DNA of 64,000 bases, taken from positions 9,291-73,290 of the forward strand of contig CAZXAN010000002.1 of the NCBI GenBank assembly GCA_964638585.1, read 5' to 3'. The position numbers were made by a program, and so were the translations under genes. Source of the DNA: an uncultured Candidatus Saccharibacteria bacterium. Its GTDB lineage: Bacteria; Patescibacteriota; Minisyncoccia; Phycocordibacterales; Phycocordibacteraceae. Below, in pieces: positions 2,044 to 58,610 of this stretch (within the stretch, counting starts at the first letter, position 1; each line of letters starts with the position of its first letter). The notes under the pieces were generated by a model that had not been told where the DNA came from, made no database searches, and saw only the letters and a program-made list of their open reading frames with translations.

Positions 2044-3624
2044 TCACGTTTTCTTAGCTTTATTGGCTGGTTTTGTCTGTTCTGTCATACCGAGTGCAGA
2101 GCGGATGTGTCTACGCGCGAGAGAAGTTTTGGCTATCTCTAGCCACTTGGTTGACGGGTGTGCAGAGTCTCTCCTGATTATCTCTACAACTTCTCCGTTG
2201 CCGAGTGCAGTGTCAAACGAGACGAGCTTGCCATTGACCTTTGCGCCTTGCAGGTGGTCACCAAGGTCACTGTGTATCGCGTATGCAAAGTCTATCGGCG
2301 TAGACGCCGCTGGCAGGTCTATCACATCTCCCTTTGGAGTAAAGACGAATACGCGATGAGAAAAGAAGTCCTCCTTCAATCCCTCTACAAACTCTTGAGA
2401 GCCAGCGATGTCGGTGTGCGCTTCAGCGAGCTCAGCGAGCCACTCTGGCGCCTTGAGCGCTCCCTCTACTCTGTTTCCATTTTCTTTTTTCGTAAATCTC
2501 ATTAGCGATGGGATAAGTGAGCGCACCCAAGTGAAGGAGAGCGATGAAAACCTGCTTTTCTGTTCGCTTTTTTCAAGATTTTCTATACCTTTACCAAGCT
2601 GTTTATACGACATATGCGATGCGATACCGAACTGCGCATCGCGATGCATATCTTCTGTTCGTATCTGTATCTCTACGATGCCTGCGTTTGGTGTCACGAC
2701 TGTTGTGTGTAGAGACTGATAACCGTTTGGCTTGGGGAAGGCGATATAGTCTTTAAATTCTCCAGGTAGTGGTTTGTAAAGCGCGTGTACTATGCCAAGC
2801 GCCGCGTAACAATCTTCAACTCGCGGTACTATAAGGCGTAGTGCGGCGATATCGTGAATTAGCGTTATGTCATCATTTTTTCTCTGCAATTTCTGATGCA
2901 AGCTCCACAGCCCCTTCATACGAATAGAAGTTTTAAATTCTTTGATATCTTTTCGCATCAGCTCGCGCTTTATGTCCTTTTGTATTTGGATCAAACCGTC
3001 TTCGGTCTCTTTTGTCTTCAGTTTGCGCACCTCGGCTGTGTGAACAGCTGCGTCTGGGTCTACATAAGGGAACGCGAGATCCTCTAGCGCACGCTTCATA
3101 CGCCCCATACCAAGACGGTCTGCGATTGGCGCGTATATCTCAAGAGTTTCTAGCGCGATGCGCTTACGCTTGTGTTCTGGCACGTGCTCAAGTGTCTGCA
3201 TATTGTGTTCGCGGTCTGCGAGCTTCACTATTAGCACACGGATGTCGCTCGCTGTCGCAACAAGCAAGCGACGCAAGCTCTCTGCGTGGCGTTCTGCACC
3301 GCGATATTTGTGAGTGCCGAGCTTGGTAACTCCGTCAACGATAAAGAGAAGTTCTTTGCCGAATTCTTTTTCCATTTCTTCACGAGACACGCGACCATCC
3401 TCAACAGCGTCATGGAGTAGACCGGCGGCAATAGTCGTCGCGTCCATGCCGTATTCAGCGAGCGTCTTGGCTGTTGCAGCTGGGTGTATGAAGTACGGTT
3501 CGCCAGAGTAGCGCTTCTGCCCATCGTGAGCCTTTTTAGAAAATTCGTACGCCTTTTCTACTACTGCTACATCTCCCTCAGTCGGGCTAACCATCTCGGC
3601 GACAATATCCTTGACTGGTGTCAT
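2044..3624 (-). CDS. rel: Short bifunctional (p)ppGpp synthetase/hydrolase Rel (HD + synthetase + TGS, no ACT domain)
   Basis: HD hydrolase block HDAVEDG, synthetase block (DIAALRLIV, YQSLHTTV), TGS-like VFVFTPKGDVIDLP; only 526 aa. Confidence 0.85.
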   Translation of the reverse strand: MTPVKDIVAEMVSPTEGDVAVVEKAYEFSKKAHDGQKRYSGEPYFIHPAATAKTLAEYGMDATTIAAGLLHDAVEDGRVSREEMEKEFGKELLFIVDGVTKLGTHKYRGAERHAESLRRLLVATASDIRVLIVKLADREHNMQTLEHVPEHKRKRIALETLEIYAPIADRLGMGRMKRALEDLAFPYVDPDAAVHTAEVRKLKTKETEDGLIQIQKDIKRELMRKDIKEFKTSIRMKGLWSLHQKLQRKNDDITLIHDIAALRLIVPRVEDCYAALGIVHALYKPLPGEFKDYIAFPKPNGYQSLHTTVVTPNAGIVEIQIRTEDMHRDAQFGIASHMSYKQLGKGIENLEKSEQKSRFSSLSFTWVRSLIPSLMRFTKKENGNRVEGALKAPEWLAELAEAHTDIAGSQEFVEGLKEDFFSHRVFVFTPKGDVIDLPAASTPIDFAYAIHSDLGDHLQGAKVNGKLVSFDTALGNGEVVEIIRRDSAHPSTKWLEIAKTSLARRHIRSALGMTEQTKPANKAKKT

Positions 3625-3714: not shown

Positions 3715-3924
3715 TTAAACCTTGCTGACGCCTAGGGCGTTCGGGCCCTTTGGGCTGTCTCCGATAGTGAAAGAAACCTTGTCGCCCTCCTGGAGCTCAT
3801 CGAACGAAATGTTCTGGAGCTCGTTGGAATGGAAGAAAAGATCCTTTGCGCCTTCTGCGGCGCCATCGACTTTAATAAAGCCGAAGCCCTTATCGTTTTT
3901 CTTGATTACTATGCCGTTTTGCAT
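3715..3924 (-). CDS. csp: Cold-shock protein (CspA family)
   Basis: KGFGFI (RNP1) and DLFFH (RNP2-like) motifs, 69 aa. Confidence 0.85.
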   Translation of the reverse strand: MQNGIVIKKNDKGFGFIKVDGAAEGAKDLFFHSNELQNISFDELQEGDKVSFTIGDSPKGPNALGVSKV

Positions 3925-4792: not shown

Positions 4793-5788
4793 TTATTTGC
4801 CACGGCCGAAGTATTTTTTGAGAAGAGCGACATGCTCTGCATACGTCTGCGAACAGTGGAATCGTCTAGCCGAATCGTGGAAGTAGAAGATGCAAGAAGT
4901 ATTTCTAGGATTAAGGGCTGCTAGCACAGACGCAACTGACGGGTTAGAGATAGGTGTAGGTGGCAGTCCCTTGTTGAGATATGTATTATATGGCGACTTG
5001 CGAGATATATCTCTAGGTGGGACAACCTTTGGCCACCAGCCTGCGCCCTTTACGCTATTCGCTTTGGCGTACTGTAGTGTTGCGTCTATTTGTAAGGGCA
5101 TGTTTATAAAAAGTCTGTTCCAGATGATTCCAGATATGAGGCGTCTATCGTCAGCACCGCCAGCCTCTCTCTCAATCATAGAGGCGATAGAGAGAGCCTG
5201 CTCAAGAGGGACAATTTGCGCAATGGTCTCACTATATCGCGAGAGGATGTCGTTATAGAATCGTTCATTTACAAGAGCCTGTGCCTCTATTGGTGTTGTG
5301 TTGGGCGTGACTAGGTATACGCCTGGAGAGAAAGAGCCTTCTATAAGTGGTAGAGATTCGTCTGGTCTCGCAGTTAGGAATTCTTTTTTCTGTATCGCGC
5401 TCCACGAGAGAACCTTTGCAAATGCGTTTGCCACCTGTTCTTTGCGCATACCAGCAGTGATTTTAACAAAGCGTCCGTCTACTCCCGCGATGCTCTGATA
5501 GAAGGGTATCTCACTAATCGCTATAGCGACCCAGTCAAACACGCTAGAAAATATTTCTGCCATGTTACCAGTGGCAGCTTGGAGTGGCGAATTTTGATTT
5601 TCAAAAAATGTGTTCACGTCAGCATTCTCAACTATCACTCTATTCTTTGGGTCAACAGTGACAGGGAACTGTTCTGAATATGCAGTTATACTGCTGTCAC
5701 TCTGAACATTTGATGCAAGGATTATAGGCAGAGAGAACATTACTACAGTAAACAAAACGACTATTAAAACTATTAGACCAGTCCTCAT
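4793..5788 (-). CDS. mltG: Endolytic murein transglycosylase MltG (YceG family)
   Basis: N-terminal TM, YNTYLNKGLPPTPISNPS motif typical of MltG, overall YceG architecture. Confidence 0.75.
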   Translation of the reverse strand: MRTGLIVLIVVLFTVVMFSLPIILASNVQSDSSITAYSEQFPVTVDPKNRVIVENADVNTFFENQNSPLQAATGNMAEIFSSVFDWVAIAISEIPFYQSIAGVDGRFVKITAGMRKEQVANAFAKVLSWSAIQKKEFLTARPDESLPLIEGSFSPGVYLVTPNTTPIEAQALVNERFYNDILSRYSETIAQIVPLEQALSIASMIEREAGGADDRRLISGIIWNRLFINMPLQIDATLQYAKANSVKGAGWWPKVVPPRDISRKSPYNTYLNKGLPPTPISNPSVASVLAALNPRNTSCIFYFHDSARRFHCSQTYAEHVALLKKYFGRGK

Positions 5789-6657: not shown

Positions 6658-7347
6658 TTAGTAACGGGAGCGTATGAGATTTATTTTGTCCCGCAGTTGC
6701 TTGTTTCCTTTGTGCAATACCCGGTCCACTATTCTAACTTGATGGTGAATCTTATCCTGGGTAAATCCTCCAAGCAATATCCCTATCTGCAAGGACGAGA
6801 CTTTCGCATCAATCCTTAGTAAATACATAAGGACTTGCTGCGGCAGGGTAACGTTGATAGCCATTCCGTCCCATTCGAGTAAAGACTCTGGCCGCACCAA
6901 GCACGCATCGCAGACGAGACCAATAACCTTGCTCATCTGCGGTACGCAGCTGGCTTTGACCATGGGTGCCGGGGACAGCTCTACTTTTTCGACAGTCGGT
7001 TGGACCGTTTTGGGCTTAGCTATTGACGGTTGCGGTCTGGCTGTTTTAAGAGTGAACCTAGTCAGTGGCAGGATAAAAACCTTGATGGGTTTAACTACGG
7101 GCACCGAGGGTTTAGCAACTTCTATCGGTGCGGTTTGCAGAACGGTTGTGATCGTTTCCTGCTTCGGCAACACGTGACGTGCTCGTAACAGTTCAAGTGC
7201 TTCTTGTTGCGCCTGAATGCTCCGATGCGATAAACATTTGCCGGTATTGTTATAGCGGTTAAGAGGCGCACCGCACTCGCGACAGCATTTTTGGGGAGGC
7301 CTCGGCGGGCCATCGTCCCCGCTCCAATCAAAGATCTCATATGCCAT
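6658..7347 (-). CDS. Hypothetical protein: N-terminal zinc-ribbon (CCRECG...CLSH), Pro/Lys-rich linker, conserved-looking C-terminal domain
   Basis: 229-aa ORF flanked on both sides by TATAAAAACAGAGAACCCGTTT terminator modules. Confidence 0.4.
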   Translation of the reverse strand: MAYEIFDWSGDDGPPRPPQKCCRECGAPLNRYNNTGKCLSHRSIQAQQEALELLRARHVLPKQETITTVLQTAPIEVAKPSVPVVKPIKVFILPLTRFTLKTARPQPSIAKPKTVQPTVEKVELSPAPMVKASCVPQMSKVIGLVCDACLVRPESLLEWDGMAINVTLPQQVLMYLLRIDAKVSSLQIGILLGGFTQDKIHHQVRIVDRVLHKGNKQLRDKINLIRSRY

Positions 7348-9245: not shown

Positions 9246-10226
9246 CTAGTCAAACAAAGAAATAAGATACGCATCTATGTCGCGCTGGTCCATTGTGTAG
9301 AGATATGAATTAGAGTTGTGCAGTTCTGTTGCTAGCTTCACACCCACAAAGCGCCAGTGCCACGGCTCAAAGACATAATAGCCATTATTCTTAGGATATG
9401 AGAGGACAAAGCCGTATTTATAGGCATTTGCGACGACCCACTCGTAGGCAGGAGTGCGATCAAATCCAGAGAGCTGGCCACCAGTACCTGTAGTGATTAG
9501 GTCAACAGTTGTGCCGAGCTGATGTTCTGAATATCCTTGATCGGCAGAAAAGGAATTAGCGGTGCCGGCACCGTAGACGACGCTGTACTGTCCCTTAAGC
9601 GCCTGTTGGGTGTTAAACGAACGATAAGCGGAACTGACATACAGTGTTACGCCATCTGTCTTGGCCTGACCAATCATCCGTGTCAGGTAGGGAAGAACTT
9701 CGGGGATAATCTGCAACGGCAACTTCTCGTCATATTTATATACGGCGGGAATCTCTACAAGTCTGGCAGGTGCGTAGGTATCGCTTAAGAAAAAGACTTT
9801 TGAATATTTTGCGAGGAGCTCGGGGTCGGTCTTACTCAACTTCTGCAGACTCGTCAACGTCCCACTGAGAGAGCCGACCTGATTTTGGACTCCGCCCAGC
9901 TGTGACTGCACATTTTGTTTTTCTTGGTTTATCGCATTTGCCAAAGAGGTTGTTTTATCAGTAATACTGTTCTGTAGAATAGCGGTTGTTGATGCAAGTC
10001 CAGAGCTTAGTTCCAAAGTAAGTTCATCAACGCGCGCGGACAGCGCAGTAAACTGCACATATCCGTACCAGGATATTGTGAATATCGCAGAAACAACCAA
10101 AGCAAACCCGGCGACCGTGAACCACTGGCCAGTCAAAATAGTCTGAATAAATTTGTGAGCATGCTTTACTTCCATCCAGCCAGTATACGATACATTGCGA
10201 CATATTATTTTTGCGATAGAATGCAA
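9246..10226 (-). CDS. VanY-like D,D-carboxypeptidase (peptidase M15B) with N-terminal TM and coiled coil
   Basis: SEHQLGTTVD and EPWHWRFVG zinc-ligand blocks. Confidence 0.7.
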   Translation of the reverse strand: MHSIAKIICRNVSYTGWMEVKHAHKFIQTILTGQWFTVAGFALVVSAIFTISWYGYVQFTALSARVDELTLELSSGLASTTAILQNSITDKTTSLANAINQEKQNVQSQLGGVQNQVGSLSGTLTSLQKLSKTDPELLAKYSKVFFLSDTYAPARLVEIPAVYKYDEKLPLQIIPEVLPYLTRMIGQAKTDGVTLYVSSAYRSFNTQQALKGQYSVVYGAGTANSFSADQGYSEHQLGTTVDLITTGTGGQLSGFDRTPAYEWVVANAYKYGFVLSYPKNNGYYVFEPWHWRFVGVKLATELHNSNSYLYTMDQRDIDAYLISLFD

Positions 10227-10290
10227 ACACGTCCTCAGAAATGGGGGCTAATAGATTCCGGGATAGCTCAACGGTAGAGCAGCGCCCTGT

Positions 10291-10872
10291 GGTCCATTTC
10301 CTCCCCCCGCCACGGTATATAATGTACCGAATGGCAGACAAGAGGAAATACGCCGACAGGAGAGAAGAACTCATTCGAGCGGTTGCAAAGCGCAGAAGAA
10401 AGATTAAGAGCATGGCGATTGAGTACAAAGGTGGCAAATGCCAAATTTGTGGCTACTCAAAATATCAAGGAGCGTTTGATCTTCACCACATTGATCCGAA
10501 ACAAAAAGACTTTGGTATCGGCGATAAGGGTTACACCCGATCGTGGGAGAGGGTTAAAGCGGAACTCGATAAATGCATCTTGGTTTGTGCGAATTGTCAT
10601 CGCGAGGTTGAGGCCGGCGTTACGCAGCTTCCTAAAGAGATTTAGGTTGAAAAATGAGGTGAATTCGGGGAAACCCTAACAGCGGAAATGCTGTGGGCAA
10701 TCCCGAGCCAAGCCACGACGACAGGCGTTGTGGAAGGTGTAGAGACTATCCCGCAAGGGAGTACCCTTCGAAGCTTTATGCGAAGTAGGGGAAGCGCCTC
10801 ACACCCTCGATCTGCGAAAGCAGGTACGGGTGATGATATAGTCCATCCCTCTAGGTAACTTAAGGAGCGATG
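10291..10872 (+). mobile_element. Group I intron (putative) with internal HNH ORF
   Basis: U at 5' splice site, G at 3' end; GNRA hairpins GGGGAAACCC, CAGCGGAAATGCTG, CCCGCAAGGG; P7-like GACTA/TAGTC in GTAGAGACTAT...GATATAGTCC resembling R/S elements. Confidence 0.55.
10331..10645 (+). CDS. HNH homing-endonuclease-like protein encoded inside the intron
   Basis: CQICGY...LHHIDP...CANCHR HNH/zinc-finger pattern; track ORF 10241 start is an in-frame upstream extension across the tRNA exon. Confidence 0.6.
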   Translation: MADKRKYADRREELIRAVAKRRRKIKSMAIEYKGGKCQICGYSKYQGAFDLHHIDPKQKDFGIGDKGYTRSWERVKAELDKCILVCANCHREVEAGVTQLPKEI

Positions 10873-23387: not shown

Positions 23388-24067
23388 ACACAACTAGACA
23401 TCATGCGTTTGTTATTGAGGCGGAGGCAGAGGAGGGGATACAGGTAGCGCAGGCGTGGGTGAAAGATAATATCGGGATGGAGGCAAAGGCGAACCCAGAT
23501 ATGATTGTGTTGAGATATGGACTATTCTCGGTTGAGGATGCGCGGCGAGTTTCTGAACTCGCCGCGAGCGCGCCTTTTGATGGCGAAAGTAAGGTGCTAA
23601 TTATTGCCGCGAGTCGCGCTTATCACGAAGCGCAGAATTCGCTCTTGAAACTTTTTGAAGAACCATCCCCAGGCACATACTTGTTTTTAATATTGCCAAG
23701 TTTGGGCGGGCTGTTACCGACACTGCGTTCCCGCGTCCAGATACTCGGTGGAAAGTGGGGACTTACGAAGTCCCCACTTCCGGGCGCGGCGGAGGAGTTT
23801 ATGAAGGCTAGTAAAGAAAAAAGAAGCGTGATGATAAAGAAGATAGCGGCGCACGCTGATGGCGATGCTGTCTCGGCGAGAGAAGAGGCTCTCGCTATCG
23901 TAAACGGCATTGAGGCGGTCGCATACATGTCGGGACGTACGACGTCCCGACATCGAGAATTGCTTGAAGATATACAAGTGCTACGCGGATACCTAAATGA
24001 TCGCTCGGCACCTGTGCGTATGATTCTGGAGCACGTATCAATGATAATTCCCAAAAATTTGCTATAA
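23384..24067 (+). CDS. holB: DNA polymerase III delta'-like subunit (short, no Walker A)
   Basis: LLKLFEEPSPGTYLFLI and LPTLRSR blocks; ATGA overlap with mreB stop. Confidence 0.65.
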   Translation: MNTTRHHAFVIEAEAEEGIQVAQAWVKDNIGMEAKANPDMIVLRYGLFSVEDARRVSELAASAPFDGESKVLIIAASRAYHEAQNSLLKLFEEPSPGTYLFLILPSLGGLLPTLRSRVQILGGKWGLTKSPLPGAAEEFMKASKEKRSVMIKKIAAHADGDAVSAREEALAIVNGIEAVAYMSGRTTSRHRELLEDIQVLRGYLNDRSAPVRMILEHVSMIIPKNLL

Positions 24068-24115
24068 TTACTGCATTATCCTGCTTACTGCCTTCTGCTA
24101 ACTGCTTACTATTTT

Positions 24116-24676
24116 ATGGCATACGATTTTTCAAAATTAAAAGCGCAAATTAAAGAGACAGAGGAGTGGCTCGCGCGTGAGCTGTCGGGCGTGAGGACTG
24201 GCAGAGCGACGCCGACATTGCTCGACGCTGTGAAGCCCGAAGCATATGGTACTAGAACAGCGCTGAAAGAGCTTGGCTCTGTATCTACTGAAGATGCTAG
24301 GACTTTGCGCATTATCCCCTGGGATAAAACTCTTCTGAAAGCAATAGAGAAGGGAATTACAGACGCTGATCTAGGAGTTGGTGTCTCTACTGACGACCAG
24401 GGCATCCGCGTCTCGTTTCCAGAACTCACAAGCGAGCGTCGTGAGCAGTTAACAAAAATAGCGAGGGACAGAACAGAACAAGCGAAAGTGACGCTACGCC
24501 AGCACCGCACCGACGCGCTTAAAGCGCTTAAAGCGCTTGAAGTCGCAGAAGAGGCAGGTGGTATGGGAGAGGATGAAGTTGCGCGCCTGAAGACAGAAAT
24601 CCAGAAATTGATTGACGCGGGCAACGAATCGCTCGCCAAAGTCCTGGAACGTAAGGAGACTGAGATAAGTCAGTAA
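24116..24676 (+). CDS. frr: Ribosome recycling factor
   Basis: 186 aa, GVRTGRATPTLLD and DQGIRVSFPELTSERREQL blocks. Confidence 0.85.
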   Translation: MAYDFSKLKAQIKETEEWLARELSGVRTGRATPTLLDAVKPEAYGTRTALKELGSVSTEDARTLRIIPWDKTLLKAIEKGITDADLGVGVSTDDQGIRVSFPELTSERREQLTKIARDRTEQAKVTLRQHRTDALKALKALEVAEEAGGMGEDEVARLKTEIQKLIDAGNESLAKVLERKETEISQ

Positions 24677-52546: not shown

Positions 52547-52666
52547 GTGCTACTCCTTTTGATTGACTAATTGTAAGTAGGATTTAGCCTGTAGGTACGT
52601 AAAGAACTATACGCACACAAGAACACAGCCGGATAGACTATACCATACAAATTATGAAAAGGGAAG

Positions 52667-53122
52667 CTAGGCAAGGAGGTTATCCACAACTGCCTTAACG
52701 TCACCACCGTCGGCCCTACCCTTAAGCTCTTTCATCAGAGCACCAGTAAATTTACCCGCATCGGCTTTTGTAGAGACGCCCAACTCTGTCATCTTGGCTT
52801 TTGCTATTACGAGAATCTCGTCACGGCTCATCATGGTGGGTAAGTATGTTTCTAGAATTGCTAGTTCAGCTTTCTCTGGCTCAACAAGGTCGTTGCGTGA
52901 TGCCTTTTCAAATTGTTCTATAGAATCCTTGTGCTGATTAACCGAGCGCTTGATAACAGCCAATGCCTCATCATCAGCGAGGTATTCGTCGGGCTTGCGT
53001 TTCTTCGCCACAACCTCGTTCGTCATTGCTGTAACCAGCGAGCGTAGGGTTCGAAGTTTTACTTCGTCATGGGCGCGTAGCGCATCTGGGATAGATTTCT
53101 TAATTGTTTCGTGAATAGCCAT
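52667..53122 (-). CDS. yqeY: GatB/YqeY-domain protein
   Basis: 151 aa, helical, LRTLRSLVTAMTNEVV and C-terminal GKFTGALMKELKG pattern. Confidence 0.65.
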   Translation of the reverse strand: MAIHETIKKSIPDALRAHDEVKLRTLRSLVTAMTNEVVAKKRKPDEYLADDEALAVIKRSVNQHKDSIEQFEKASRNDLVEPEKAELAILETYLPTMMSRDEILVIAKAKMTELGVSTKADAGKFTGALMKELKGRADGGDVKAVVDNLLA

Positions 53123-53143: not shown

Positions 53144-54202
53144 ATGGATATCTTCACTGTCGCACTAATTGTTCTAGGATTGATTCTAGTGCAGGGCATT
53201 GGTCTATACTTTATATTCCGGCGCCGCGAAGCGACGCCGGCAGAAGATGGGGCAGGGATGGTTCTCCTCCAGCAACAACTACAGAATCTGGAAAAAACTC
53301 TTGATGCAAGAGTTTCAGAGTCTTCAAAAGCGATGCAGGAAAATTCGCACAGGCAGTTTTCAGAGTCTGCGCGTCTAATAAAAGAGATTACGCAAGAAGT
53401 AACGAGTGTGAAAGAGATTGGTCGACAGACCCAGGGCTTCGCCGAACAGTTACAGTCTCTACAAGATTTGCTTAAGAACCCTAAGCAGAGAGGTATTCTC
53501 GGCGAATATTATTTAGAGACTGTCTTGAAAAATGTAATGTCGCCCGAAGATTATCAGATCCAGTATCCATTTAAGAATGGTGAGATAGTAGACGCAGTTA
53601 TTTTCATAAATAAAAAGATAGTGCCCGTAGATTCTAAATTCTCACTCGATAATTACAACAGGTTTGTGAGCACGCAGATAGGGAGCGCAGAGAGGGCTGT
53701 GGCAGAGAAGGCGTTTGTGAATGATCTTAAAATGCGTATCCAAGAAACCGCGAAATATATCCGGCCTGAAGAGAACACGATGGACTTTGCTTTTATGTTT
53801 ATCCCTTCAGAAGGCATTTATTATGATCTTCTTACCAATCAGGTTGGCGCTGGAGAAGATGAAAATCTTATACAAAGAGCAGCAGGGAAGTGGAAGGTGA
53901 TAATAGTATCGCCGACATCTTTTCTCGCATATCTACAAACAGTCATGCAGGGGCTTAAAGCTTTGAAAATAGAAGAAAAAGCAGTAGAGATACAGCAGAG
54001 GGTAGGGGAGCTGGGGAAGCATGTACAGGCCTATGAGACTTTCTACAAGAAGCTGGGCGTCTCGCTCGGCACTTCTATCTCGCACTACAACGCGGGCTAT
54101 AAAGAATTGGGTAAAATAGACAAAGACGTGTATAGAATCTCCGAGTCTAAAATAGGTATTGAGCCCGAATTATTGGACAAGCCGCTAGCATCTGAAGCAT
54201 GA
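53144..54202 (+). CDS. rmuC: DNA recombination protein RmuC family
   Basis: N-terminal TM, long coiled coil, C-terminal FAFMFIPSEGIYYDL block. Confidence 0.6.
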   Translation: MDIFTVALIVLGLILVQGIGLYFIFRRREATPAEDGAGMVLLQQQLQNLEKTLDARVSESSKAMQENSHRQFSESARLIKEITQEVTSVKEIGRQTQGFAEQLQSLQDLLKNPKQRGILGEYYLETVLKNVMSPEDYQIQYPFKNGEIVDAVIFINKKIVPVDSKFSLDNYNRFVSTQIGSAERAVAEKAFVNDLKMRIQETAKYIRPEENTMDFAFMFIPSEGIYYDLLTNQVGAGEDENLIQRAAGKWKVIIVSPTSFLAYLQTVMQGLKALKIEEKAVEIQQRVGELGKHVQAYETFYKKLGVSLGTSISHYNAGYKELGKIDKDVYRISESKIGIEPELLDKPLASEA

Positions 54203-54217
54203 TGCTAGAATATATAT

Positions 54218-54997
54218 ATGCCAGAAGCAACTAATCAAAATCGCTGGAGTAAACTTAGTACCTTCCTTACCATAATTAGCTTGATTTTGGGTATTTTTGG
54301 AATTTCGTATACTGCTTTAATACTTGCCACGTGGGGTATATCTGTTTTTGGGCTTGAGGTCAATACCTATTTTTATGATTGGCCAGTTGTATACGCTCAT
54401 CAATTTTCTCTTACAATAGGTCCGCTTCTGTATCTGTACATAATCTTTGGATTTAAAAAAATCAAAAGAAATCTATGGTTTTCATTCACGATCTTGTTGT
54501 TAGCAATCATTTTTATTGCAGTTGGTCCATTTGAGCTCGCAGACAGATATCGTGAAAATATTCCGCACTATCAAGTTCCCCCGACATTACAAACATTTGA
54601 AACAGAGCTAAAAAATGGTGTCTACAGTAATGAAACAAATGCTACAGCCAGATGCTTGGATATATTACAATCTATATCTTCGGAAGTGAATTCAGCAAGT
54701 GTTCGATTTACTAATTCTTGCATCTACTTGATTGCGATCCACTTTGACGATCCGATGATGTGCCGCGAGAATATTTACCCTCACTTTATAAATACCGAAC
54801 CCTATGTTTTTGATGAGTTATGCCTAGAGGCTTACGGTATTACTAGAAAATCTGAAGCCAAATGTCTAACAATTCCAGATTATAAAGTTCAGTCCAGTAA
54901 AGATAGCTATGTGTATGGAACACATGGGCAATACCCCAGAGACTACTGCATTCAAATGTCCCATAGCAACCAATCGTCAAGGTTTGATAACATATAA
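54218..54997 (+). CDS. Hypothetical membrane protein (4 TM + Cys-rich C-terminal domain), AT-rich cassette 1
   Basis: 259 aa; lower GC than neighbours; bounded by rmuC 3'-end repeat copies. Confidence 0.35.
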   Translation: MPEATNQNRWSKLSTFLTIISLILGIFGISYTALILATWGISVFGLEVNTYFYDWPVVYAHQFSLTIGPLLYLYIIFGFKKIKRNLWFSFTILLLAIIFIAVGPFELADRYRENIPHYQVPPTLQTFETELKNGVYSNETNATARCLDILQSISSEVNSASVRFTNSCIYLIAIHFDDPMMCRENIYPHFINTEPYVFDELCLEAYGITRKSEAKCLTIPDYKVQSSKDSYVYGTHGQYPRDYCIQMSHSNQSSRFDNI

Positions 54998-55476: not shown

Positions 55477-55488
55477 TTCATCTCAAAA

Positions 55489-55746
55489 ATGGCTCGCATC
55501 GTACTCACGCCGCCTGCCGAACGAGAGTACAAGCGCTTGCCGAGAGACGTGCAACAAATGGTTCAGGAGTTGTTTGATGGTCACTTTCGAATCGATCCAC
55601 TTGCTATTCAATTTAGAGCTAGGAAAGTGCAGGTACCTTTCACTGGGTATCGCCTGCGACTGAGAGACTACCGTGTACTTTTTGAATTCGAAGGAGAAGT
55701 TATTCTCGTGTATCGAATCAGACATCGCAAAGATTCATATAAATAG
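55489..55746 (+). CDS. RelE/ParE-family toxin
   Basis: 85 aa; ...YRLRLRDYRVLFEFEGEVILVYRIRHRKDSYK typical RelE/ParE C-terminus; 12-bp gap after antitoxin. Confidence 0.65.
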   Translation: MARIVLTPPAEREYKRLPRDVQQMVQELFDGHFRIDPLAIQFRARKVQVPFTGYRLRLRDYRVLFEFEGEVILVYRIRHRKDSYK

Positions 55747-55826
55747 ACAAAGACGTGTATAGAATTTCCGGCTCCAAAATCGACATCGAACCAGAATTGT
55801 TGGACAAACCAGCGACAGGGGAGTAA
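55741..55826 (+). repeat. Copy 3 of rmuC 3'-terminal segment
   Basis: AAATAGACAAAGACGTGTATAGAATTTCCGGCTCCAAAATCGACATCGAACCAGAATTGTTGGACAAACCAGCGACAGGGGAGTAA; encodes IDKDVYRISGSKIDIEPELLDKP... like RmuC C-terminus. Confidence 0.6.
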
Positions 55827-56097
55827 TGTTGCATTCGGCTCGGGCAACATGCTGTGGACGGAACGGGCCGACAGGCACGTTTGTGGGGTTCGATACCCTG
55901 CTCATGGGTGGATAGTGGTCTTTGTGGTGCATAGAATAGCTGGGAGACTGTGAAGTCTCGTTCCTGGACGGGATTGAGTCGCCGTTGAAATACCAGTCCC
56001 GCAGATGTATCAGTTGAAACTGCCCGAGCCGGCCCGTCATTTCGTAAGATTTGGCGGGCTTTCCTTTTTTATAGAACCGTGCTAGATTGTGGGGACT

Positions 56098-56415
56098 ATG
56101 GAAGTGGCCGTAATCAAGACCGGTGGGAAGCAGTATGTCGTCTCTAAGGGCGACACTATCGCTATAGAGAAGCTCCCAGGGGACTTGAAGAAGGGTGACA
56201 CGGTTGTATTTAACGAGGTGCTCCTCGTAGACAACGGCTCGGACACGACCATCGGCGCACCTATCATTAAGGGTGCAGAGGTCAAGGGCACTGTTGTTCT
56301 CGCCGGGCTGGGTAAGAAGGTGGAGGTGGTGAAGTACAAGCCGAAGAGTCGCTACTATAAGCGCAAAGGGCATCGACAACCACTCCTCAAAGTCAAGATA
56401 GATTCTATTAACTAG
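56098..56415 (+). CDS. rplU: 50S ribosomal protein L21
   Basis: MEVAVIKTGGKQYVVSKGDTI...; preceded by ~260-nt structured leader. Confidence 0.85.
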   Translation: MEVAVIKTGGKQYVVSKGDTIAIEKLPGDLKKGDTVVFNEVLLVDNGSDTTIGAPIIKGAEVKGTVVLAGLGKKVEVVKYKPKSRYYKRKGHRQPLLKVKIDSIN

Positions 56416-56504
56416 GCACTCTGACAGGCTTTAGGCGCTAGTTATTAAGTCACACAATTATTCAGTTTGTATCGCTAGTGCCTAGAGCCTAGCGCCTAAT
56501 ATCT
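56416..56504. repeat. MITE-like element with inverted GCCTA/TAGGC heptad arms around an AT-rich core
   Basis: CTAGGCACTCTGACAGGCTTTAGGCGCTAG...AT-rich...GCTAGTGCCTAGAGCCTAGCGCCTAA; same architecture at 58527-58610. Confidence 0.5.
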
Positions 56505-56512
56505 AATTACAT

Positions 56513-57856
56513 ATGCAAGTAGGGCGTTGGAATCATCAAACATCAACAAGTAGTGGCAGGAGCAGTTCGCAGAGTGCAGGTCGCTCTTATTCTTCACGCC
56601 CACCACAGCGTGGCGGTGCTAGCCGTTTTCCATCTCGCGGTGCGTATGGCGCGCGTGGCGGATACAGTGGCAGACCGAGTTTTGGAAGTAGGGGAGGGAG
56701 TCGCGGCGGCGGAGCACGCCGCGGAGGCTTCGGCGTATTCGGCGAGACAGAAGCAGAAATTTCAAAATTTATGAACAAGACGGTCGTTACTACCGAGGAG
56801 CCGGTGTTCATTCCAGAGCACAAGTTCTCAGATTTTGACATAAACGAACATCTCAAAAAAAATATCACTGCAAGAAAATACGAAAACCCAACTCCTATTC
56901 AGGATAAGGCTATTCCGCACGCGCTACTCGGCCAAGACGTCGTCGGCCTCGCCGCCACAGGCACAGGGAAGACGGCGGCATTTCTTATTCCACTTATTGA
57001 TAAGGTCGTGAAGCAGAAAGGCGAACGCATTCTTATTATGGCGCCGACTCGAGAGCTCGCAGTGCAGATAGAAAAAGAACTTGCAGGTTTCGCGCGAGGT
57101 CTCGGTTTTCGCGGTATGGTCGCGGTAGGCGGTGCGAATATCGGCCCACAGATTTCTCAACTGAAGCACAGTCCGGCGTTCGTTATAGGTACTCCAGGCA
57201 GATTAAAGGATTTGATGGAGCGCCGTGCGCTCGACCTATCAGGCTTCGGCACGGTCGTCTTGGACGAGGCAGACCGCATGCTAGACATGGGCTTCATTGA
57301 TGATATGCGTTCTATCTTGAGCAAGATGCGCAAAGAGCGTCACACGCTCTTCTTCTCGGCGACGATGGGTAAGGATATTGAGCGTCTTATCGGAGACTTT
57401 CTTACCAGCCCAGTAACCATCTCTGTTAAGACGCGCGACACGCCAAATAGTGTTGACCAGGACGTTGTGAGGATACCTCGCGGAAAGGATAAATTTGAAG
57501 TTCTGTCGGAGATGTTAAAGGATCGAGAGTTTAGCAAGGTGCTTGTATTCGGCCGGACCAAGTTCGGCGTAGAGAAGCTCGCCAAGGCCCTCTCTCGACT
57601 ACACATCCATTCTGAGAGTATCCACGGCAATAAGACCCAGGGAGCGCGCCAGAGGGCTCTGGAGGCTTTTAAGGCAGGGAAGGTCACTGTCCTCGTGGCG
57701 ACCGATGTTGCCGCACGCGGTATCGACATCCCAGCTGTATCGCACGTTATCAACTATGATCTACCGTCTACCTATGAGGACTACGTCCACCGAATCGGCC
57801 GCACCGGCCGCGCTGCGCTGAAGGGCAAAGCACTCACTTTCGTCCAAGGCCGCTAG
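56513..57856 (+). CDS. DEAD-box ATP-dependent RNA helicase with N-terminal RGG/SR-rich low-complexity extension
   Basis: Q-motif, AATGTGKT, DEAD (VVLDEADRMLDMGF), SAT, HRIGRTGRA; residues ~10-75 Arg/Gly/Ser-rich. Confidence 0.85.
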   Translation: MQVGRWNHQTSTSSGRSSSQSAGRSYSSRPPQRGGASRFPSRGAYGARGGYSGRPSFGSRGGSRGGGARRGGFGVFGETEAEISKFMNKTVVTTEEPVFIPEHKFSDFDINEHLKKNITARKYENPTPIQDKAIPHALLGQDVVGLAATGTGKTAAFLIPLIDKVVKQKGERILIMAPTRELAVQIEKELAGFARGLGFRGMVAVGGANIGPQISQLKHSPAFVIGTPGRLKDLMERRALDLSGFGTVVLDEADRMLDMGFIDDMRSILSKMRKERHTLFFSATMGKDIERLIGDFLTSPVTISVKTRDTPNSVDQDVVRIPRGKDKFEVLSEMLKDREFSKVLVFGRTKFGVEKLAKALSRLHIHSESIHGNKTQGARQRALEAFKAGKVTVLVATDVAARGIDIPAVSHVINYDLPSTYEDYVHRIGRTGRAALKGKALTFVQGR

Positions 57857-57860
57857 TTTT

Positions 57861-57897
57861 CGTAAGGTGTCACCTTGCTACAAGGTGACACCTTACG
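57861..57897. terminator. 16-bp perfect inverted repeat CGTAAGGTGTCACCTT-gctac-AAGGTGACACCTTACG between convergent helicase and recR
   Basis: Each arm is itself the AAGGTG-N-CACCTT palindrome seen at 44205 and 44703. Confidence 0.55.
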
Positions 57898-57900
57898 GAA

Positions 57901-58521
57901 TTAGGTTTCTTTGCGGTTGGTTAGGGCGGCGCGGAGGGTCTCGGCGTCGGAGTATTCGAGCTCACTGCCGGTGGCGAGGCCGCGGCCGAGCTCAGATATC
58001 TTCAGGTGATCGCGATGTGGCGCGAGGAGCTCGCGCACACGGTCGGTCGTGTGCTCGCCTTCGCTTGTTGCAGAGAGAGCTAGCACTACTTCTTTGAGGG
58101 ACGTTAGACGTCCCTCACGGGGGATGAGGCGACGTTCAATCGTTTTTAGTAATTCTTTTTCGCGTATAGCGCCCTTGCCCGAGAGAGTTAGCACGCCGCC
58201 GAGAACAAAATAGCGGCCGCGGTAGGTACCAGCGCGTTCGACTGCAGATAAGTCTTGATCCTTTTCTACTATCATCAGGAGAGAGTCATCGCGCTTAGTG
58301 TCAGAACAGTAATTACAAATGATTGCCGTACCTCCATTATAGAAGCGCAAGCACTCGGGACATTGGCGAACGTCTTTGCCCAACGTTGCAATGAGTTCTG
58401 TGAGCCTCTTGCGCTCGTCAACGGGAGCGGAGAGTAGATAATAAACAAAGCGCTTGCCCTGCCTCGGGCCGATACCGGGGAAGCGGGCGAGCGCACGTGC
58501 GAGTTCTTCAATGTGATCCAT
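57901..58521 (-). CDS. recR: Recombination protein RecR
   Basis: HhH GIGPRQGKRF, C4 zinc finger CPECLRF...CNYC, Toprim. Confidence 0.85.
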   Translation of the reverse strand: MDHIEELARALARFPGIGPRQGKRFVYYLLSAPVDERKRLTELIATLGKDVRQCPECLRFYNGGTAIICNYCSDTKRDDSLLMIVEKDQDLSAVERAGTYRGRYFVLGGVLTLSGKGAIREKELLKTIERRLIPREGRLTSLKEVVLALSATSEGEHTTDRVRELLAPHRDHLKISELGRGLATGSELEYSDAETLRAALTNRKET

Positions 58522-58526
58522 GTTGG

Positions 58527-58610
58527 TAGGCGTTAGGCTTTAGGCTATAGGCTTTAGCTAAAAAATACAACTCCTGAAAACTAATGCCTAGAGCCTAGTG
58601 CCTAAAATTC
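58527..58610. repeat. MITE-like GCCTA/TAGGC heptad element (second full copy)
   Basis: TAGGCGTTAGGCTTTAGGCTATAGGCTTTAGCTA-aaaaatacaactcctgaaaacta-ATGCCTAGAGCCTAGTGCCTAAAATTC. Confidence 0.5.

Follow-up and report, generated by a model that had tools for sequence, protein, structure and literature searches.

Short palindromic repeats assembled from phased heptads occupy intergenic spacers in a 64,000-nucleotide stretch of DNA (hereafter the window) from an uncultured Candidatus Saccharibacteria bacterium (assembly GCA_964638585.1, contig CAZXAN010000002.1, positions 9,291 to 73,290), a host belonging to the Candidate Phyla Radiation (CPR). Units of GCCTA/TAGGC with a 7-bp period are found in three spacers, at 218-253 (locus 1), 56412-56509 (locus 2) and 58527-58605 (locus 3). 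Loci 2 and 3 are full palindromes, in which a TAGGC arm, an AT-rich core and a GCCTA arm follow one another, and locus 1 is a single arm. We tentatively favour, at somewhat short of an even chance, the view that these elements are copies of a dispersed palindromic intergenic repeat family that behaves in the manner of miniature inverted-repeat transposable elements (MITEs) or repetitive extragenic palindromic (REP) sequences, and that may have acquired a role in translational coupling.

The heptad repeats at the three loci stand as described in the original prediction, a model's reading of the bare sequence. The pattern GCCTANNGCCTA has 8 matches in the window as compared to a mean of 0.06 in shuffled sequences, and Tandem Repeats Finder detects an array of period 7 at each of the three. 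The pentamer GCCTA is not itself enriched, with 39 and 45 occurrences on the two strands of the window against approximately 57 expected per strand, and the signal therefore resides in the 7-bp phasing of the clusters. The same phasing is evident in 1.17 Mb of Kaiserbacteria loci, where TAG recurs at a 7-nt period 38 times, as compared to 0-5 times at periods of 5, 6, 8 and 9, and is the only trinucleotide specifically enriched at the 7-nt period outside coding motifs. The periodicity had been predicted to place the units on alternating faces of the helix; the period itself is real, whereas the geometry is not, since each unit is turned by approximately 240 degrees relative to the last and three units span two helical turns.

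The repeat unit can be written as GCCTAR plus one free base, and the layout of the two full elements as (YTAGGCN)n, an AT-rich core, and (NGCCTAR)n. In the case of locus 2, which lies between rplU and a DEAD-box helicase gene, the 5' arm (56412-56441, + strand; CTAGGCAC..AGGCTTTAGGCGCTAG) consists of TAGGC-type units with an irregular CTCTGAC bulge among them, and the rplU stop codon TAG (56413-56415) falls within the first unit. The AT-rich core (56442-56474, + strand), the right half of which (AATTATTCAGTTTGTATCG) is identical in the related genome L198, leads into a 3' arm (56475-56509, + strand) of five in-phase CTA units, CTAGTGC CTAGAGC CTAGCGC CTAATAT CTAATTA, the final two being degenerate; this arm stops 3 nt short of the helicase ATG at 56513. 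Locus 3 occupies the recR-dnaB spacer, where both genes are on the - strand. Read in the sense of these genes, its 5' arm (58585-58605, - strand) is TAGGCAC TAGGCTC TAGGCAT, appearing as three GCCTA units on the + strand, and the first TAG (58604-58602, the last CTA of the + strand) is the dnaB stop codon. The core (58559-58584, - strand) has TTCAG..TTGTAT in common with the locus-2 core, in the same orientation, and the 3' arm (58527-58558, - strand; four TAGGC units on the + strand), CTAAAGC CTATAGC CTAAAGC CTAACGC CTA, stops 5 nt short of the recR ATG (58521-58519). That the two spacers share one architecture had been correctly recognized, and the predicted gene names agree with Pfam, by which the neighbouring genes encode a peroxiredoxin, L21, a DEAD-box helicase, RecR, DnaB and MiaA.

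The elements are positioned with respect to both gene ends. At loci 2 and 3 the 5' arm begins at the stop codon of the upstream gene (rplU and dnaB, respectively). The last CTA of an array most often lies 7-10 nt from the start codon. The arrays do not end 10-30 bp before a start codon, as had been suggested; the measured gap is 3-10 nt. No Shine-Dalgarno motif (GGAG, GAGG or AGGA) precedes the four array-led genes of the window, whereas such motifs are found before other window genes. When the stops of long open reading frames (ORFs) are read along each strand, a stop is followed by a TAGG array in 61 cases and by a CCTA array in 14; likewise, a CCTA array leads to a start in 40 cases, versus 10 for a TAGG array, and single arrays keep the CCTA-to-start orientation at 19:10. 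For palindromes with at least three units per arm and a spacer of no more than 60 nt, the polarity TAGG...CCTA was counted 24 times, and the reverse polarity not once. GCCTAR therefore points outward to the adjoining gene, whichever end of that gene is concerned. Such a polarity is not something for which hairpin stability can account, but transposon-like ends or cooperative protein binding can.

In this genome, the genes led by arrays are prx, the DEAD helicase gene, recR, frr and clpB, while in other contigs the translations of the genes concerned include S12, S7, S4, S5, L14, L20, NusA, NusB, SSB, TrxB, PBP2 and HtpG. Judged from these translations, the downstream genes are essential and highly expressed ones. 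In contig L178, elements are present at both junctions of the infC-rpmI-rplT operon. The array-led genes, housekeeping genes of a general kind, have no functional theme, and the elements are compatible with high expression and are placed inside operons. A stress regulon, as might be proposed from prx, the DEAD helicase gene, recR and clpB, was considered and rejected, given that arrays elsewhere precede genes for ribosomal proteins, NusA, SSB and others.

Copies of the family are not limited to the window. The original prediction had left room for the outcome that only these copies exist, with no termini in common; a metagenome scan for one arm (CCTAGNGCCTAGNGCCTAA) instead returned at least 120 loci. 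The majority of the listed matches prove to be either extended arrays or complete palindromes, the cores of which measure 1-45 nt, and perfect arrays such as (TAGGCTT)7 and (TGCCTAA)n are among the matches. The listed contigs that carry the unit range from 30 to 73% G+C, and this spread in base composition suggests that the heptad unit is not confined to CPR. Several of the low-G+C contigs carry 2-4 elements within 2-8 kb. Four groundwater contigs (L113, L131, L133 and L136) have one common element of approximately 95 nt, arms and core included, in unrelated flanks: the similarity ends at the ends of the element, and every copy stops 2-5 nt short of the start codon (ATG) of a gene for a different, unrelated protein.

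Comparison of orthologous junctions in relatives provides evidence for gain and loss of whole elements. The RecR relatives are metagenome-assembled genomes of Candidatus Kaiserbacteria/Paceibacterota, and in most of 80 such relatives the dnaB and recR genes abut or overlap in an arrangement of the TAATG type (…gaattcTAATGgac). Heptad palindromes occupy this junction in only three of the 80, L052, L058 and L062, in each case beginning at the stop codon but built from differing units (TAGGC, TAGCC/TAGGG and TAAGG, respectively). The dnaB stop codon, mostly TAA in relatives, reads TAG in the window and likewise in L052 and L058. The element is absent from this junction in the nearest relatives found, which have 85-90% RecR identity, and the genomes that bear it are scattered over the RecR tree. 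At the rplU-DEAD junction, five close relatives (L005, L032, L043, L009 and L034) have spacers of 13-17 nt, whereas L039 and L198 possess the element. The L006 junction retains the outermost units only (CTAGGCAC|AGCGCCTAATATCTAATTA), an arrangement equivalent to the window element minus its inner 71 bp.

Sequence conservation at locus 2 is considerable. The arms are identical to those of L198 at 59 of 60 positions and the core at 29 of 33, while the third codon positions of rplU are 66-70% identical; L006 and L039 likewise retain the 25 nt upstream of the helicase ATG. Groundwater contigs in ENA match the window at 99.98-100% identity, one of these with a single mismatch, and no polymorphism in unit number was found among 12 contigs of this population. 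Two of the 12 end at locus 3, as would be expected for a repeat.

Other arrangements were noted around the same genes. A more distant relative, L084, has a different unit ahead of its DEAD helicase gene (7259-7288; CTAAAAA CTATCAA CTATAAA CTGAAAA), and this gene has therefore gained heptad leaders of differing sequence more than once. Synteny upstream of rplU differs in L198, and in the window rplU is closely preceded by a ParE toxin gene and its 89-aa partner (the 55483-56088 region; L001 12776-13315). The dnaB-recR junction also carries a G+C-rich, structured insert of approximately 150 nt (…gcagcatggtaatttc..gcgccgaaatttgcg…) in L213 (2830-2985), and, just 5' of recR (about 9850-10000), in L027, L039, L042, L046 and L078; it is without a counterpart in Rfam and has the appearance of a further small element, mobile or structured. 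A different insert of approximately 110 nt (…ggggctccgcagactgacgaggcgaggactgagcg…cagcagaaaaatcgcgtaccc…), also lacking a match in Rfam, is found there in L040, L065 and L070 (about 9880-10000).

As RNA, the full elements are predicted to form interrupted hairpins, the free energies of which range from -31 to -50 kcal/mol and the z-scores from -3.7 to -6.2, while the single arm of locus 1 shows no tendency to fold (z = 0.3). At the foot of the predicted stem are the stop and start codons, which in L117 and L131 pair with each other. Rfam covariance models gave no match for the window or for both full elements, whether at the gathering threshold or with E-values relaxed to 5. Neither full element has a U-tract or T-run after its stem, and a terminator consensus scan called neither of them; the only such call of that scan was a conventional bidirectional terminator, a perfect 20-bp hairpin at 57858-57900 between the convergent DEAD helicase and recR genes.

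Single arrays have a setting of their own. The half element that had been predicted ahead of the peroxiredoxin ATG is a single 3'-type arm (218-253, + strand), CTAGAGC CTAGTAC CTAAAGC CTAATTA CCTAACAT, which abuts the ATG at 254 and makes up the entire leader of approximately 30 nt, without a Shine-Dalgarno sequence. One nucleotide 5' of this array is an extended -10-like box, TGGTATCAT (208-216, + strand), read from the sequence as a putative promoter; if it is one, transcription would begin within the first unit. The TGGTAT box of this locus also precedes arrays in L025, L042, L112 and L117. Heptad arrays are more numerous than in the original list, further ones being found before frr, in the window, and before clpB, outside it. 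The array before frr, the ribosome recycling factor gene, is of a second type (24081-24115, + strand; CTGCTTA CTGCCTT CTGCTAA CTGCTTA CTATTTT, that is, TTACTGC/TAACTGC units); it abuts the ATG at 24116, with an extended -10 box, TGCTATAAT, upstream (24060-24068, + strand). A CTGC-type array lies directly before the clpB ATG at L205 4369-4405, 5.4 kb upstream of window position 1 (CTGCCTA CTGCTAT CTGCATA CTGCAAC CTATTCA). Membership is uncertain for a possible weak array of three units, TAGGATT TAGCCTG TAG (52578-52594, + strand), in the spacer 5' of a 112-aa gene.

Apart from the array-led genes, many window genes look leaderless, in that a -10-like box of the TAnnnT type (TATAAT, TATAGT, TAGTAT or TAGAAT) lies 6-9 nt 5' of the ATG and no Shine-Dalgarno sequence is present. 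Examples are 2044-3624 (-), 4793-5788 (-), 52667-53122 (-), 53144-54202 (+) and 54218-54997 (+); other genes have clear GGAGG-type sites. The proximity of these boxes to ATG codons suggests that leaderless mRNAs may be widespread in this genome.

How such a family might have arisen and been retained can be envisaged as follows. Its members have outward-pointing arms of 3-6 heptads (consensus GCCTAR plus N), the order on either strand being 5'-(YTAGGCN)n, a short variable core and (NGCCTAR)n-3', and they behave like non-autonomous insertion elements, whole units coming and going in the narrow intergenic spacers of compact CPR genomes. Insertion would often occur at the TA of a stop codon, where TA together with the first G of the element would regenerate TAG, and single arms such as 218-253 would represent partial copies. 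The element, once tolerated, may then have been kept for the properties that it confers on the mRNA. The 5' arm would place UAG in all three frames right after the upstream gene, and the 3' arm would provide a Shine-Dalgarno-less leader abutting the next AUG. With both arms on one transcript, an interrupted hairpin of 20-30 bp could form, the base of which would set the stop codon beside the start codon. On terminating upstream, a ribosome would then open the start site, and in this way a hairpin with stop and start at its base would keep the coupling that relatives obtain from overlapping TAATG junctions. The stem, which in the predicted folds brings the two codons together, would probably preserve translational coupling.

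A number of observations weigh against this account, both of mobility and of coupling. The two full copies in the window have their arms, the first unit TAGGCAC and the TTCAG..TTGTAT motif in common, with only weak similarity between their cores (p about 0.07). TA is present at both ends of each copy but is part of the unit, and no diagnostic target-site duplication was found. If the element is taken out, a stop codon is regained at locus 2, L052 and L058, whereas locus 3 and L062 are left without one. No transposase or REP-associated tyrosine transposase (RAYT) gene is present among the called genes in approximately 84 kb of this genome, the sole recombinase being a XerC/D-type integrase. As for the hairpin, the free positions of the two arms match each other no better within an element (0.50) than between elements (0.53) in terms of complementarity, indicating that the arms are generic arrays and that a perfect stem is not selected; the idea of a stem under base-by-base selection was dropped for this reason. 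G-U wobble pairs gave conflicting indications of the RNA strand, pointing to the sense strand at locus 2 and to the antisense strand at locus 3. The single arms (218-253 and those before frr and clpB) cannot form a hairpin yet adjoin the ATG in the same way, and so an arm has, or tolerates, a role without a partner. Moreover, of the four genomes compared, L198 has the element most similar to that of the window but the most diverged rplU, so that lateral exchange of the spacer could mimic purifying selection.

The position of the arrays at start codons is open to another explanation, one we consider unlikely, namely that a single (NGCCUAR)n array in the 5' untranslated region is an RNA leader akin to the TAACTGA heptamer repeats of other bacteria. 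It would offer the ribosome or an OB-fold protein (S1 or a cold-shock protein) a binding platform in a 7-nt register, and would drive or regulate Shine-Dalgarno-independent initiation, with the inverted arm serving to mask the array. The 7-10 nt peak before the ATG and the lack of Shine-Dalgarno sequences before array-led genes are consistent with this, as are the single arrays that follow -10-like boxes directly in leaders of approximately 30-40 nt (218-253, 24081-24115 and clpB), the 19:10 preference of single arrays for the CCTA-to-start orientation, and the 6/7 match of the TAACTGC/TTACTGC units to TAACTGA. A gene for a 69-aa cold-shock-domain protein, a possible single-strand binder with a footprint of approximately 7 nt, is present at 3715-3924 (-), although no protein that binds the arrays was identified. 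Against it, units in the opposite sense follow stops even more often (61:14), and a reading at the RNA level consequently needs a second, separate function, whereas polarity at the level of the element explains both; the gain and loss of whole palindromes, and dispersed copies that share a core, would also be left unexplained. Less likely again is that the units are operators on double-stranded DNA, on which a heptad-reading protein polymerizes along both inward-facing arrays, around or after a promoter, to repress or insulate. A precedent exists in the ribbon-helix-helix protein omega of pSM19035, dimers of which occupy runs of contiguous WATCACW heptads, whether direct or inverted. The contiguous 7-bp units, direct and inverted, fit such a protein, the strict 24:0 head-to-head polarity could be imposed by its cooperative contacts, the arms are generic arrays and not optimized stems, and at three promoters the arrays start directly after -10-like boxes. 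No candidate regulator was found, however, the small hypothetical proteins of the window being without a Pfam match, and the neighbours (ribosomal proteins, NusA, SSB, frr, clpB, prx and recR) lack a common function. Many elements are placed between cistrons inside operons, with cores of 7-20 bp that are too short for a promoter, the unit sequence varies between related genomes at one and the same junction, and a unit present in contigs of 30-73% G+C would call for a very widely conserved protein. A promoter within the core was itself entertained, being plausible for loci 1-3, and was rejected in view of the many elements with cores of 7-20 nt and no -10-like box.

Two further explanations fare worse. 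That the elements are bidirectional terminators or stabilizers of mRNA ends, as has been proposed for REP sequences, is in our estimation very unlikely, notwithstanding the strong predicted hairpins, the placement of the 5' arm after stop codons, and the small conventional terminator that replaces the element in the rplU-DEAD spacer of relatives. The stems are not followed by a U-tract, the genome employs a conventional perfect 20-bp terminator elsewhere (57858-57900), and the 24:0 polarity, the single arms and the elements inside ribosomal-protein operons are not explained by hairpin stability. The arrays might also be neutral heptanucleotide microsatellites, generated by replication slippage and having neither function nor mobility. 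Heptanucleotide repeats are the commonest class of long simple-sequence repeat in many prokaryotes (Mrazek et al. 2007, as summarised in PMC4679880), and perfect arrays such as (TAGGCTT)7 and (TGCCTAA)n do occur among the metagenome matches. The data already disfavour this explanation, which we regard as the most improbable of those considered: units in the window vary at the free position yet keep GCCTAR, unit number is constant across the 12 contigs of the same population, the arms match L198 at 59 of 60 positions in the face of 66-70% at rplU third codon positions, and slippage yields neither a fixed inverted polarity nor dispersed copies that share a core.

The reading of the elements as a dispersed palindromic family invites comparison with known mobile repeats. 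The label MITE-like, as originally applied, holds for behaviour, in the presence or absence of whole units, the 24:0 polarity and the dispersed copies of approximately 95 nt, but classical membership does not follow, there being no diagnostic duplication and no transposase. The inverted heptad arms constitute terminal inverted repeats, and the elements are variably present at the orthologous dnaB-recR and rplU-DEAD junctions; a parent insertion sequence (IS) or transposase with matching ends was not found within the approximately 84 kb. The Correia repeat-enclosed element (CREE) of Neisseria is a MITE with conserved full-length sequence and a demonstrable TA duplication, and is transcribed into hairpins that affect the expression of neighbouring genes. 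CREE and similar bacterial MITEs resemble the present elements in length (approximately 100 bp), in inverted-repeat ends, in intergenic positions near gene starts, and in a variable occurrence among relatives; both would be compatible with insertion at TA, and hairpins are predicted for the window elements. The differences lie in ends that are heptad arrays of variable unit number, in cores conserved within subfamilies only, and in the lack of a visible parent IS. REP sequences and bacterial interspersed mosaic elements (BIMEs), with their RAYT proteins, are similarly short, imperfect extragenic palindromes of many copies and species-specific sequence between genes, and a (G)TAGGC/GCCTA(C) motif presumably resembles the ends of REPs in E. 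coli. However, REPs are single hairpins of 20-40 nt with a GTAG head, mostly located after gene ends, whereas the arms described here are multi-unit heptad arrays with Y (C or T), not G, before the unit, and no RAYT is encoded in the approximately 84 kb.

Among heptad systems, the closest published analogue is the TAACTGA heptamer repeats, which in marine Beggiatoaceae, cyanobacteria and Bacteroidetes are found just 5' of start codons without a ribosome-binding site, and which have no known function (MacGregor 2015, PMC4679880). Tandem 7-nt units in an intergenic position near a start, with no ribosome-binding site, are likewise found at loci 1, 2 and 3 and at 24081-24115. In both cases the unit is 7 nt long, bears a stop codon, and is repeated in 2-6 tandem copies, in forward orientation and a few nucleotides from starts without a Shine-Dalgarno sequence; both precede housekeeping genes, including those for ribosomal proteins, and both have a patchy phylogenetic distribution. 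The TAACTGC/TTACTGC units of the frr and clpB arrays come within one position of TAACTGA, a 6/7 match. The main unit here is not TAACTGA but GCCTAR plus N, with one variable position in place of exact copies, and most arrays are paired with an inverted array as a palindrome, in a CPR host; among 170 TAACTGA sets, one 'indirect repeat' was recorded (PMC4679880). No description of these unit sequences, or of heptamer repeats in CPR, was found in the literature. The short tandemly repeated repetitive (STRR) sequences of cyanobacteria and the long heptanucleotide simple sequence repeats of prokaryotes are also tandem 7-nt units in non-coding DNA, and some metagenome contigs have perfect GCCTAA-type arrays; these known repeats, however, are long, exact, direct and thought to be born of slippage, whereas the arrays here are short, imperfect, conserved and inverted. 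The omega operators of pSM19035 share contiguous 7-bp units, direct and inverted, near promoters, but their unit is WATCACW, they are plasmid-borne and are bound by a known ribbon-helix-helix protein, and many of the present sites are inside operons. As RNA, the 5' arm reads UAG-N4-UAG-N4-UAG, the spacing of the HutP site (UAG-N4 three times; the site of TRAP is (G/U)AG-N2-3 eleven times). HutP requires two UAG sets on the same strand, whereas the second set here is the complement (CUA), and no HutP or TRAP homologue turned up, though none was sought.

Two other affiliations were considered and set aside. TTAGGCACTC resembles TTAGCACTC of the CIRCE/HrcA system, a link that was rejected on spacing and multiplicity, and a phage origin was rejected because the five matches in a viral collection approximate our estimate of chance. 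Elsewhere in the window, a group I intron (Rfam RF00028, 62 bits) was detected at 10600-10865 (+), overlapping the end of an HNH endonuclease ORF (10241-10645), with no tRNA or rRNA gene called there.

CPR, or Patescibacteria, make up a large share of bacterial diversity, and the manner in which transcription and translation start in these organisms is hardly known. The family described here sits at the stop and start codons of essential genes in place of a Shine-Dalgarno sequence, in some genomes in every second or third spacer, and an understanding of it would show how CPR organisms express their core genes. It also gives the heptamer repeats of Beggiatoaceae, cyanobacteria and Bacteroidetes, so far unexplained, a place in a wider class that can be tested. 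In practical terms, the elements break short-read assemblies of CPR genomes, as illustrated by contigs of this population that end inside locus 3. A more general proposal, which we put forward as doubtful, is that CPR and some other phyla possess an as yet undescribed class of self-folding intercistronic cassette, a mobile palindrome of stop-bearing heptads that enters the TA of a stop codon between coupled genes harmlessly. In RNA form, the cassette would fold out of the way and leave no reading frame open, and the ribosome that terminates upstream would be passed on to a start codon without a Shine-Dalgarno sequence, positioned where the stem begins. If this were true, then in element-rich genomes, with one element per 2-4 kb, the cassette would be a main mode by which translation initiation is organized for ribosomal-protein and other core genes.

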